Shown here: piece by piece, positions 2,945 to 8,255 of the stretch | Layout of the letters: each line of letters begins with the position of its first letter | Position numbering within the stretch: the stretch's first letter is position 1 | The notes under the pieces: model-generated | What the model was told of the DNA's origin: nothing | The model's input: the letters and a program-made list of their open reading frames with translations, nothing else | The model's database searches: none | Translations under genes and position numbers: made by a program | Assembly: GCA_964615185.1 (NCBI GenBank) | Contig: CAZTOS010000038.1 | Span: forward strand, 10,837-21,108 | DNA from: an uncultured Thermococci archaeon | GTDB lineage: Archaea; Methanobacteriota_B; Thermococci; Thermococcales; Thermococcaceae | Length of the DNA stretch: 10,272 nt | Direction of reading: 5' to 3'

Positions 2945-3373
2945 ACAGGAATGATTTATGCTGTCAATCATGCAAGTCAGCGTTACTTTTTTCTTTTGAA
3001 AGCTTTAGGATGGTGCCAGTAATTGAAAGTTCACTCAGAGTAAAGCTCTTAAAATACTTTCCAGTTTGATAATGCTTCGGAAAGATCACTTTGTGAGGGT
3101 CTCAAAGAAGGCCGAAAGGCATCTGAAAATCAATTCTCAGCAGTTAAGACTCTTGGGGTGGTCAAGTAACTGCTGCAGGACTTGTTATTAATCAGTACCA
3201 TTACTATGAGCTTGATGTTTCCTCGAACAGAGATTTTTAGGAAAATGGAGGTTGCCTTTCTATTGATGACGTTTGTTTCCTTGCTACCGTTTGTGCATGG
3301 TGTTTAAATCATGAGATATTGTTGAAGAGTAATGTATGAAACATTCATAGTCTCAAGACTTGTCTATGACTTA

Positions 3374-5049: not shown

Positions 5050-5454
5050 TTAAACCTCCAGAAGGTTTAAACCAAATTTTTTGAGTCTTTCAAAGTGTTT
5101 TACATTGTTTGTAAGGATTGGAATGTTGTGTGAAATTGCGATTGAGCCAATCAACAAATCTCTTACATCAATTGGTTCTCCTCCTTTTGAAAGCTCCGCT
5201 GCAATTTTTCCAGCAATTTCGGCAGATACTTCGTCAAGTTCAAGAATTAGTAATGTGTTTAAAAAAGTCTTGACTTCAAGCAATCTTCTCTCTCTTTTGT
5301 GAGACTTATATGCGCCGAAATATAATTCAAAAACAGTTATCGTTGTTACGATGAATTGATAAGTTTCTCTTAGTCTTTTCAGTTTCTCAACAGTGTCACG
5401 TTTTCCTCTGAGAAAATCAATTACAACATCGGTGTCAAGAATCAGATTTTCCAT
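5050..5454 (-). CDS. vapC: PIN-domain ribonuclease toxin (VapC)
   Basis: LILDTDVVID, TITVFEL, DLLIGSIA and ILTNNVKHF contain the PIN acidic residues. The probable start is ATG 5454 (MENLILDTD), overlapping the antitoxin stop. Confidence 0.92.
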   Translation of the reverse strand: MENLILDTDVVIDFLRGKRDTVEKLKRLRETYQFIVTTITVFELYFGAYKSHKRERRLLEVKTFLNTLLILELDEVSAEIAGKIAAELSKGGEPIDVRDLLIGSIAISHNIPILTNNVKHFERLKKFGLNLLEV

Positions 5455-5630
5455 GAATTCCACATCCGTTTTATAGTTGCTTTGAACTCTTCCGCTTCTT
5501 CCTCGCTCATATCCTTCCAGACACCAGCAAAGTCCATGAAATCAGGCTTCTCTGTAAAGAATATTTTGATTATCCTTTTTACTTCTTCTTCGTCTACCCA
5601 ATCTGGAACCTCTATCTTTATTACTTTCAT
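5442..5630 (-). CDS. Putative VapB-type antitoxin (62 aa)
   Basis: Small acidic ORF directly upstream of and overlapping vapC. The C-terminal FAGVWKDMSEEEAEEF is typical of archaeal VapB tails. ATG 5630 lies 1 nt after the moaD stop. Confidence 0.75.
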   Translation of the reverse strand: MKVIKIEVPDWVDEEEVKRIIKIFFTEKPDFMDFAGVWKDMSEEEAEEFKATIKRMWNSWKI

Positions 5631-5631
5631 C

Positions 5632-5895
5632 TCAACCACCACTCGCCGGCGGGAAAAGGGCGACAACATCTCCATCTTTTAGTTCCTCATCAAAGCTTAC
5701 ATAGCTCCCATTCCTTGATATATTGACATCAGCATCCTCATTTTGTTCAAAAACTTCATCTCTGAACTTCGGATGTCTCTCTTTTATGATTTCGATTAAA
5801 TCTTTCACCTTACCATCATCGGAAATTTCTACAATCTCCTCGCTAACTCCAGCAAGCTCTCTAAAGCGGGCAAAATATTTTACTTTAACCTTCAT
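5632..5895 (-). CDS. moaD: MoaD/ThiS/SAMP ubiquitin-like sulfur carrier
   Basis: MKVKVKYFARFRELAG N-terminus and LKDGDVVALFPPASGG C-terminal di-glycine; GGTGA RBS. Confidence 0.93.
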   Translation of the reverse strand: MKVKVKYFARFRELAGVSEEIVEISDDGKVKDLIEIIKERHPKFRDEVFEQNEDADVNISRNGSYVSFDEELKDGDVVALFPPASGG

Positions 5896-6487: not shown

Positions 6488-7015
6488 TTAAGCTCTTTCC
6501 TTTTCGACTTCATGTAGGCAGAGGATTAATTTTTCGAGGAGCTTCTCTTCATCACTTCTTATGAGCAATTTTATAATTCTCTCCGTTATTTCATTCTTTT
6601 TGAGCATAAATTTAAGTTTTTCCCGTATTTTCTTTGCTTCTTCACTTTTATCCTCTTTGATTTCTTCAAGGGCTTTTTGAACATTTATTCTTGTTTGTCG
6701 AATGTCTTCAAGAAGTTTGTTGTAATACGCCGCTTTTCTCCATTCTCTTAGATTTTTTATTGCTGTAAAGTATGCTTTTTTGTCTCCTGGCTTTTTAATT
6801 CTTGTAACTAAGCCAACACTTTCGAGGAGCTTTAAGGCGGAACTCACATGAGAAATAGAGTATCCTGTTCTCTTTGCAATCTCACCCAAGCTTAATGGCT
6901 CATCAGCAAAGAACAAAACACCGTAAATGTATCCATAGAGCTCGCTTAATCCAAACCTCCTTGCGGCGTTTGCGAAGTGGTTCATCATAATCCTTCTTGC
7001 TTCTTCAATTCCCAA
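6488..7015 (-). CDS. GbsR/MarR-family winged-helix transcriptional regulator
   Basis: FGLSELYGYIYGVLFFADEPLSLGEIAKRTGYSISHVSSALKLLESVGLVTRIKKPGDKKAYF followed by a coiled-coil C-terminus. The probable start is TTG 7015 behind GAGGTGA; GTG 7024 is the alternative. Confidence 0.88.
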   Translation of the reverse strand: MGIEEARRIMMNHFANAARRFGLSELYGYIYGVLFFADEPLSLGEIAKRTGYSISHVSSALKLLESVGLVTRIKKPGDKKAYFTAIKNLREWRKAAYYNKLLEDIRQTRINVQKALEEIKEDKSEEAKKIREKLKFMLKKNEITERIIKLLIRSDEEKLLEKLILCLHEVEKERA

Positions 7016-7020
7016 CAGGA

Positions 7021-7248
7021 TCACCTCGCACAGATTAGAGTTTCGGTATATAAAATGTCTTTATTCTCTTTTAAGATTTCGTTCCTAAGCTCGTTTAATC
7101 TTTGCAAATTTTCAACTTCCACTTTGGCAATGACATCATAGTCCCCATAAAGGCTGTAAGCTTCTTTGACCTCTGGAATTTTCCTGAGAGTTTTTGCAGT
7201 TTCCTTCTCTTTTCCATTTTTAGTTGTGATTAATATAAAGGCAATCAT
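7021..7248 (-). CDS. Stand-alone Lrp/AsnC ligand-binding (RAM) domain protein
   Basis: AFILI...G.E......L..IPEVKEAYSLYGDYDVIAKVEV......I..TETLI with no HTH; GGTGA RBS at 7256-7260. Confidence 0.9.
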   Translation of the reverse strand: MIAFILITTKNGKEKETAKTLRKIPEVKEAYSLYGDYDVIAKVEVENLQRLNELRNEILKENKDILYTETLICAR

Positions 7249-7285
7249 CCAATGATCACCAAAAGATTTTTAAATTTTCATATAG

Positions 7286-7311
7286 ATAAAACTTTCGGAA
7301 ATTTTCAAAAG
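7286..7311 (-). promoter_or_regulatory. Promoter with overlapping inverted repeat for the Lrp-GbsR-carS unit
   Basis: CTTTCGGAAATTTTCAAAAG (7292-7311) matches its reverse complement at 16/20 positions. It overlaps a BRE-like GAAAG next to TTTTAT on the minus strand. Confidence 0.5.
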
Positions 7312-7340
7312 ATGTGGAAATATAGTTGTATTTTTCTTTT

Positions 7341-7568
7341 GAGAGCCTTGGGGTGGGGATGCAGAGAGTCAGTGTAATGATATTAAAGAGGCCACCATGC
7401 CTCTCAAAAAGGTTTCACATTACTTTCTGCTCTCGGAGGGTTGATGCTGTAAAGCGTCCTTTCAAGACCGCTCTTAAGTAGTTGAAACTCTTGAGGTGGT
7501 CTCTGGGCGAGGTGATAAACCCGCAAACCTTCTCGCCAATGGTGAGTCGCTGAAACCCTCGCAGTCAG
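7341..7568 (+). mobile_element. Degenerate non-autonomous IS200/IS605-family remnant (left-end-like motif, structured RNA, right-end-like motif; no tnpA/tnpB)
   Basis: GAGAGCCTTGGGGTGGGGATGC (7341-7362) and GAAACCCTCGCAGTCAG (7552-7568) resemble, from recall, archaeal IS605 ends (..GCCTCGCCC.TTAGGGCGGGGATGC and AACCCTCGCCCTT.AGGGCGGGGAGGAGGTCAG), each with the subterminal hairpin collapsed. Confidence 0.45.
7427..7568 (+). ncRNA. Structured RNA, HgcC-like / TnpB omegaRNA (reRNA) scaffold candidate
   Basis: Closing stem GAGGGTT 7436-7442 / AACCCTC 7554-7560, extended by CTGC 7427-7430 / GCAG 7561-7564. Hairpin GATGCT-GTAA-AGCGTC with a GNRA loop (7443-7458). Long hairpin 7465-7502. Hairpin GGCGAG/CTCGCC 7506-7537 enclosing ATAAACCCGCAAACC. 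G-U wobbles and the GNRA loop favour the + strand. The element ends in TCAG. Confidence 0.65.
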
Positions 7569-7594
7569 TTCCTTCACTCTTAACATCGACAATA

Positions 7595-7616
7595 CCCACT
7601 AAAAATGGCAGGTGGG
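7595..7616 (-). terminator. Possible terminator after dmpI
   Basis: A short imperfect stem (CCCAC/GTGGG) with a T-run on the minus strand lies immediately after the dmpI stop at 7618. Confidence 0.3.
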
Positions 7617-7617
7617 A

Positions 7618-7812
7618 TTAATTTTCTTTCCTCATTTTTCTGTCCAGCAGAAGCTTCCCATTAATACCCACGTTCTCGGGTGGGTTCTCCTTTATAAGAA
7701 CGGTTATGTGTTCTATCCCGTAAACCTCTGATGCCACCTCGGTAAGCCTTTTCACGAGCTCCCTTTTCTTCTCAACACTAATTGGCGGGCCTTCAACAAT
7801 TATGGTCGGCAT
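7618..7812 (-). CDS. dmpI: 4-oxalocrotonate tautomerase family protein (DmpI-type)
   Basis: Catalytic Pro-1 after Met removal; KKRELVKRLTEVASEVYG and ITVLIKE.PPENVG..G beta-alpha-beta pattern; GAGGTGA RBS. Confidence 0.9.
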   Translation of the reverse strand: MPTIIVEGPPISVEKKRELVKRLTEVASEVYGIEHITVLIKENPPENVGINGKLLLDRKMRKEN

Positions 7813-7850
7813 TTCATCACCTCACTTGAAATGGGTTAAAAGTGTATAAA

Positions 7851-8255
7851 TCACAGGAGAGCAGAGAGGAGTTTCATTAACTCTACCTTATCCCTAATTT
7901 CGACGTTATTCATTCCAAGAATGCCGGGATTTGCCTTAAAGCCCATTATCATAACATCTCTACCCTGATACTTGATGGTGAGTGTTTTTCTCTCTTCGCT
8001 TAGCTTTTCTCCAACCTCTCCTATAAGTCTCATGACGTCCGGGATGCTTTTTACAGTCTTTGTAGGGCCGCTTTCCATGCCTTTCCATGATGCCTTTGCA
8101 AGCCTACTTATCTCCTCCGGGCTTGATACATCCACGATTACCTCATCTCTGCCTATTGCAATGAAATTGCCTCCAACTTTTATCTCAAGTGAGCCCTCTG
8201 CTATTAAGCTCTGAAGCTTGAGAAGCACTTCTACAAGGGTTTTCGCATTCACCAT
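7851..8255 (-). CDS. Hypothetical protein (~134 aa)
   Basis: Clean ORF in an operon context with a GGTGA RBS before ATG 8255; ATG 8264 is the alternative. No motif recognised. Confidence 0.75.
   Translation of the reverse strand: MVNAKTLVEVLLKLQSLIAEGSLEIKVGGNFIAIGRDEVIVDVSSPEEISRLAKASWKGMESGPTKTVKSIPDVMRLIGEVGEKLSEERKTLTIKYQGRDVMIMGFKANPGILGMNNVEIRDKVELMKLLSALL

Follow-up and report, generated by a model that had tools for sequence, protein, structure and literature searches.

A structured intergenic segment in Thermococcaceae as a probable decayed copy of a protein-free IS605-type element whose family carries an uncatalogued leader domain

An intergenic gap between an Lrp/AsnC gene and a tautomerase gene in a Thermococcaceae genome raises the question of whether a stably folding, non-coding segment ending in TCAG is a stand-alone omegaRNA that guides a TnpB encoded elsewhere, or what is left of a larger element. 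The window, i.e., the whole stretch of 10,272 nucleotides that was analysed (G000:C38:10837-21108, G000 being its own genome), had led to an original prediction of an orphan guide RNA at 7427-7590, several observations of which hold. The + strand of 7420-7600 has a minimum free energy (MFE) of -58.7 kcal/mol (z -3.05; 0/200 shuffles as stable), while the - strand of the same region lacks a stable fold (z +0.91). The segment is indeed GC-rich (GC 0.48 in 7401-7600 vs 0.325-0.445 in adjacent bins), TCAG was located at 7565-7568, no credible protein is encoded (the only frames are of 62 aa on the - strand, without a Pfam match, and of 51 aa on the + strand), and no tnpB was found in the window. 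The four-helix multiloop that had been drawn stands in part: the closing stem (7436-7442/7554-7560; 7/7 pairs), the GNRA hairpin (GUAA-capped, 7443-7458; 6/6 pairs), and the long hairpin (at 7463-7505) are in the MFE structure, but in place of a single fourth hairpin at 7506-7537 there are two small ones across 7506-7546.

The segment is not an orphan RNA beginning at 7427. It makes up the 3' two-thirds of a multicopy, 239-bp non-autonomous IS605-type element (PATE; 7330-7568), which starts about 100 nt earlier with an IS605-type left end (Table 1). Queried with 7300-7620, its own genome yielded 51 matches (E up to 10), of which the best four apart from the copy itself are 76–82% identical; similarity among the copies begins at about 7330 and stops at the right end, with both ends common and the flanks unrelated. 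The divergence of copies after TCAG that had been anticipated is present, no base rising above 18/41 in any of the 12 positions that follow, and the left end is most often preceded by TTAC (15/41 rows). The window copy has its left end with the target motif and its right end by descent, both degraded; it contains no transposase or TnpB gene within its 239 bp, and a cognate TnpA is encoded in the genome. The proposed origin from an IS605 right end applies to the 3' 58 nt, where a model of the omegaRNA core (R2) matches 7511-7576 (E 0.0019).

Full-length relatives are about 370–450 bp long and consist of a left end, a BRE/TATA, a leader of about 150 nt, an omegaRNA core, and a right end. Among 29 loci from other genomes, the right-end motif is present in 27 and the left end, looked for in the 110 nt shown, in 24; of the two without the right-end motif, one stops at a contig edge and one has a variant. 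The middle of a long paralog used as a query found matches in 45/97 family genomes, and the plasmids searched with a full-length copy gave no match. The leader model (R1) and R2 were each built from 33 aligned sequences, leaving out 2/35 leader rows with an internal deletion, one core row at a contig end, and one core row with a long insertion. R1 matches 19 places of the own genome (20 matches in all) and is found in 52/96 other family genomes and in 0/36 genomes beyond Thermococcaceae. The window copy belongs to a short subfamily whose members are 66–82% identical to it. By alignment, a 43-nt promoter deletion is common to five copies, and a pattern for its junction matched three times in the own genome and in 0/96 other family genomes. 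A second, more decayed copy lies in the window at 2983-3165 (+; nhmmer E about 0.003), with TTAC at 2983-2986, a left end, and a leader remnant, and without a right end. Minimal remnants of about 45–50 bp, in which the left- and right-end hairpins are fused, occur at G000:C32:14408-14453, C13:26092, C27:2338, and C6:35798.

Scored for deletions and substitutions against the consensus of 29 relatives, the window copy has lost 7, 43, 5, 5, 81, 8, and 18 consensus nt; the two 5-nt deletions remove 10 nt around the K-loop, and those of 8 and 18 nt affect the right end. The 81-nt loss comprises the first stem of the core, the hairpin with the GACC pseudoknot loop, and the 5' arm of the next stem, and the right-end stem lacks its 3' arm (11 nt missing vs the genome's short form, 18 vs the family consensus). 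With these 81 nt gone, the reported intactness of the omegaRNA stems does not stand, nor does the idea that the RNA was kept while mobility was lost, the omegaRNA helices being the very part deleted. Because the promoter, core, and right-end segments are deleted, the predicted fold is mostly the leader, cut from its 5' part; the window fold combines the inherited leader with chance pairings that bridge the deletions. We consider it very probable that the window copy is a decayed, probably immobile copy of a PATE of the IS605 family; it would be able neither to guide a TnpB nor, probably, to move.

Table 1. Features at and around the element in the window
Feature	Position	Strand	Remarks
Lrp/AsnC gene	7021-7248	-	One flank of the element-bearing intergenic gap
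Host BRE/TATA and damaged operator palindrome	7263-7314	+	Outside the element; TATA TTTTTAAA at 7267-7274
TAM position	7326-7329	+	TTGT vs family TTAC; A>G at 7328, C>T at 7329
IS605-type left end	7330-7370	+	T-rich run; guide tetramer AGAG (family AAAG); hairpin 7 nt shorter
Deletion junction	7370-7371	+	43 consensus nt with the element's own BRE/TATA gone
Structured leader, about 140 nt	7372-7511	+	R1 79.3 bits, E 1.2e-16
Deletion junction	7510-7511	+	81 consensus nt of the omegaRNA core gone
OmegaRNA 3' part and right-end remnant	7511-7568	+	Ends in TCAG; R2 16.1 bits
Host flank, would-be guide	7569-7588	+	Unique to the window insertion
Tautomerase gene	7618-7812	-	Other flank of the element-bearing gap

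Comparison across the family leaves three of the four drawn helices without covariation support. The closing stem, which pairs the 3' arm of a local leader hairpin with a right-end segment, is pairable in 200/240 family cells, yet shows one both-side change; the leader hairpin competing with it for that strand shows 26. When one broken pair at most is allowed, the long hairpin forms in 1/40 relatives and the 7506-7537 hairpin in 2/40. The GUAA hairpin is the only one also found family-wide (98% paired, 21 both-side changes). In the leader as it folds in the family, the window copy has a long-range stem (7388-7396/7495-7503) around hairpins at 7422-7441, 7443-7458, and 7467-7482; these four family helices pair at 9/9, 8/8, 6/6, and 4/5 positions, and the 5' hairpin and K-loop-like hairpin of the leader are degraded.

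The core of the intact relatives has 97.3% of its cells paired and 10 pairs changed on both sides (0/500 shuffles), and a putative pseudoknot with the 3' end is 99% paired, without covariation. Since R2 matches the 3' ends of 8/10 tnpB genes of the own genome (75.9–144.8 bits, vs the score in Table 1 for the window copy), this core is a tnpB-linked omegaRNA. The expectation of tnpB genes elsewhere in the genome is borne out by these 10 TnpB zinc-ribbon matches, which are accompanied by a single Y1 TnpA (an open 140-aa frame with HVH and a C-terminal Y). The tnpA gene lies on C16 directly upstream of a tnpB, and the pair is bounded by the same left and right ends as the PATE copies. A single clade takes in eight of these ten proteins; its members have the usual RuvC-II motif replaced and carry an acidic pair ahead of the zinc ribbon, and rearranged RuvC sites have been reported (PMC10691335). 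Contig ends truncate three of the TnpBs, two have a mid-frame break, and one terminates ahead of RuvC-III. In a different clade, L022 (G000:C69) is a full-length TnpB with the RuvC-I aspartate changed to asparagine (GVNLG), and may, judging from this residue, possibly be nuclease-dead.

These data bear on the reading put forward originally, viz., that the segment is a refolded minimal omegaRNA that guides, in trans, a TnpB encoded elsewhere, whether active or dead. The right-end origin, the scaffold/guide boundary at the TCAG of the element end, the variable flank, the stable fold, and the ten tnpB matches are all consistent with it, as is the precedent of Thermococcus kodakarensis HgcC1-5, standalone HgcC RNAs reported to be expressed without a transposase (PMC4247193). 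We nevertheless regard it as highly improbable, given that three parts that hardly vary among 33 intact relatives, the first stem, the pseudoknot loop, and the arm of the right-end stem, are deleted from the window copy, and that three of the drawn helices lack covariation support. The flank likewise argues against a trans guide. Its 20 nt have at most 13 contiguous matches elsewhere in the own genome without a TAM and at most 8 beside one, the flanks of the other 30 right ends being similar with 7–13 contiguous matches; no target longer than 8 nt was found beside TTAC/TTAT in the genome. Among viral contigs, the 14-nt flank alone gave at least 118 matches, put down to chance, and the TAM plus 14 nt of flank gave none; metagenome contigs gave 0 matches to a right-end junction pattern whose first letter is that of the family and not of the window copy, a result without bearing on this copy. 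The flank base at 7584 differs in another strain (sequencing run X10), no ortholog of the window copy was found by locus comparison and pattern search in 96 other family genomes, and the only TnpB with an altered RuvC-I residue, that on C69, has a different right end without an R2 match. TldR-type domesticated systems reportedly derive their guide RNA from a tnpB element; unlike them, the window copy has no conserved locus or guide, no TAM-flanked genomic target, and no linked dead TnpB. Two leader-plus-omegaRNA copies in other genomes (L077 in G053 and L081 in G056), which lack the left end, occupy an orthologous site and share the same 22-nt flank, and are better candidates than the window copy for a retained stand-alone guide.

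The suggested link to HgcC holds for the family and not for the window copy, which has no match to RF00062 (E up to 5; gathering threshold 50 bits). The longer, intact paralogs match HgcC and sot0042 (RF02656) over the core and right end, ending in GGAGGAGGUCAG, with HgcC scores of 25–43 bits and all HgcC and sot0042 scores below gathering (50 and 88). The Rfam scan of the window returned only RT-19 (E 0.16), a chance match inside a radical SAM gene. The leader lies outside both the HgcC and sot0042 models and has no family match in Rfam.

This leader is the modestly new part of the family, and the window copy is the debris that led to it. Across the alignment 94.5% of its cells are paired, with 60 both-side changes vs 24 in shuffles (0/500); the number of covarying pairs is 10, a value reached by 62/500 shuffles, and these statistics ignore kinship. 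A K-loop-like motif occurs in 17/33 leaders and the same word within the HgcC consensus; by analogy with the K-loop of sRk52, which is reported to have bound L7Ae (PMC3124441), it may be an L7Ae site. The 5' hairpin of the leader and the K-loop stem have 94% of cells paired, but as their covariation is not above shuffles (288/500) they are no more than proposals. The 5' hairpin and the closing stem of the leader compete for one strand. No leader was detected in the 10 tnpB loci with R1 (best E 0.73). Among 27 weak R1 matches, 19 have an adjoining core match, in most of the rest remnants of an end or of the core can be made out by eye, and no free-standing host version of the leader was seen. 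Among the titles and abstracts listed on HgcC, TnpB, PATE, Thermococcales, and L7Ae outside subscription journals, none describes this leader. We also considered known RNA classes: a tRNA or tRNA-derived leader is rejected, as ARAGORN reports 0 genes in 7/7 loci and there is no Rfam tRNA match over the leader, and none of the hammerhead, pistol, twister, HDV, or bulge-helix-bulge structures fits by eye against its consensus, the longer paralogs and leader loci being without an Rfam ribozyme match.

The conserved hairpins can be read in more than one way. Those of the family might be kept as single-stranded DNA in transposition intermediates and not as RNA, IS605 elements being reported to move as single-stranded DNA (PMC10055086), and the spread of short copies that had lost promoter and core and kept most of the leader fits this view. 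Against it, the tnpA+tnpB element lacks the leader, which is thus dispensable for TnpA; moreover, the leader starts just 3' of the conserved BRE/TATA and tolerates many G-U pairs, and we hold a role as DNA to be unlikely. Another reading is that of a dedicated, Thermococcaceae-restricted RNA module for heat-stable expression of stand-alone omegaRNAs and their capture by TnpB in trans, a tentative proposal that we find possible without considering it probable. In full-length copies such a leader could serve as a 5' cap to which L7Ae binds, or the competing stems could make it a switch that sets up 5' processing, and at the outside this processing might be by self-cleavage.

Another possibility is that the window copy, though dead as a guide, has had its leader kept by the host, either as a structured RNA, with the orphaned promoter at 7263-7274 driving its transcription, or as a barrier where the convergent tautomerase operon ends. 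The four family helices still pair, and of 48 leader stem sites 6 are substituted, all C>T and all keeping a G-U pair, with 27/69 unpaired sites changed; taken from the sequence, these 6/6 wobble-keeping changes hint at a retained leader structure and were counted against simple decay. Much of the wobble pattern follows, however, from a background C>T bias, since C>T is the commonest change at unpaired sites of the short copies too (46 C>T vs 19 G>A). The copy is found at the same site in other sequencing runs, and the host TATA is intact with a damaged operator palindrome, and could drive read-through transcription into the element. Opposed to this are the degraded 5' hairpin and K-loop of the window leader, the lack of an ortholog in other species, and the variation in run X10, where a single contig covering 6801-7688 differs from the window by 34 other letters and 13 gap letters. 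Every gap lies within the element, and one of 10 nt at 7527 takes away the 3' arm of the fourth hairpin as originally drawn; the substitutions listed include those at 7416-7428 in the leader, where there is also a 1-nt deletion at 7434. In the RNA run X15 (contigs of another strain, up to 140 kb), only a paralog piece, 7435-7465, was found over the element, which speaks neither for nor against transcription. Retention by the host appears distinctly improbable to us.

In relatives, the 7263-7314 promoter/operator region lies 5' of an RND/MMPL-like transporter gene that is missing at the window locus; similarity between the window and relatives stops at about 7314, with the transporter-like gene next among the loci listed. 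In the own genome this gene is on C50, with its own copy of the promoter and an intact operator palindrome, which places the element at a rearrangement. The element is present at the window site in 0 cases among relatives (26/41 genomes matched 6900-7900) and in 0 among 7 congeneric genomes; no empty-site joint was found in 4 of the 22 sequencing runs listed, relatives being rearranged here and the element lying at the synteny break. The palindrome itself (7291-7314) is conserved across Thermococcaceae before the RND/MMPL-like gene and damaged in the window, its intact counterpart being at about 5290-5310 of G000:C50, and probably serves as operator for the MarR-type regulator encoded at 6488-7024.

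Returning to a decayed PATE as the preferred reading, we propose that the family would be moved in trans by the Y1 TnpA of the genome, by peel-and-paste next to TTAC as in established IS200/IS605 biology (PMC10055086). Full-length copies would be transcribed from their own BRE/TATA into a leader-omegaRNA-flank transcript, and a TnpB made elsewhere would load this RNA and cut the empty donor site, with the consequence that the element is retained. The leader would most likely take the place of the tnpB mRNA that is normally 5' of the omegaRNA, protecting the transcript until it is trimmed, a step with less support than the others, and the L7Ae-type K-loop in about half of the copies would help in this protection. 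The window copy would derive from the species-specific short form without promoter and core, and would then have lost the right-end arm and the TAM as well.

The family represents a variant of an element type already known. Protein-free PATEs whose omegaRNAs depend on TnpB in trans have been described (PMC10055086), as have PATE-derived RNAs and their link to HgcC (PMC4615843). Like the Geobacillus stearothermophilus PATE-like elements and the Halobacterium PATE RNA VNG_R0052 as presented in these respective accounts, the elements studied here are protein-free, share their ends with the tnpA/tnpB elements of the genome, and have a right-end omegaRNA with a variable flank; unlike them as there described, full-length members add a covarying leader of about 150 nt between the BRE/TATA and the omegaRNA, and the window copy lacks the omegaRNA core. 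In Pyrococcus abyssi, sRk48/sRk52 and sRkB/sRkC are reported as repeated intergenic RNAs from tnpB 3' ends, the expressed copies having their own BRE/TATA and L7Ae-binding K-loop/K-turns and the promoterless sRkB/C being untranscribed (PMC3124441); they differ from the present family by eye in sequence and right ends as given there, and belong to other IS607/IS605 subfamilies.

As transposon debris, the window copy is itself of little weight; what it teaches is caution, since neither a TCAG end nor a convincing folding z-score suffices for a working guide. The family, with its uncatalogued leader domain, offers dozens of stand-alone omegaRNAs that occur naturally in hyperthermophiles and have promoters of their own, with TTAC as the TAM and cognate TnpBs of the rearranged-RuvC type. 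Being absent from tnpB-coding copies, the leader could reveal how guide RNAs are matured or stabilised in trans at high temperature, and it could aid guide design for thermostable TnpB tools.

Several further loci merit mention. A canonical-looking tnpB on the - strand of C31 (L021) has an HgcC match (L021:2650-2751, +) and a right end upstream on the opposite strand, and TTAC/left-end-like sequence at its 3' end, and appears to be inverted relative to the element ends; a protein-free element of its subfamily is on C114. ORFs of about 50 aa lie directly 5' of rearranged-RuvC tnpB genes at L030:395-550 and L029:62-238, resembling by eye the RHH-TnpB pairs presented as non-mobile toxin-antitoxin candidates in PMC10691335; the one in L030 is flanked by an IS605 left end and right end. 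The window genes include a CDP-archaeol synthase, and matches to HgcG and a C/D-box RNA are found nearby in the genome, all of which points to Thermococcaceae. Between the thiS and thiF genes of the window, a PIN-domain gene and the small ORF upstream of it (5050-5675, -) are probably a VapBC-type pair.
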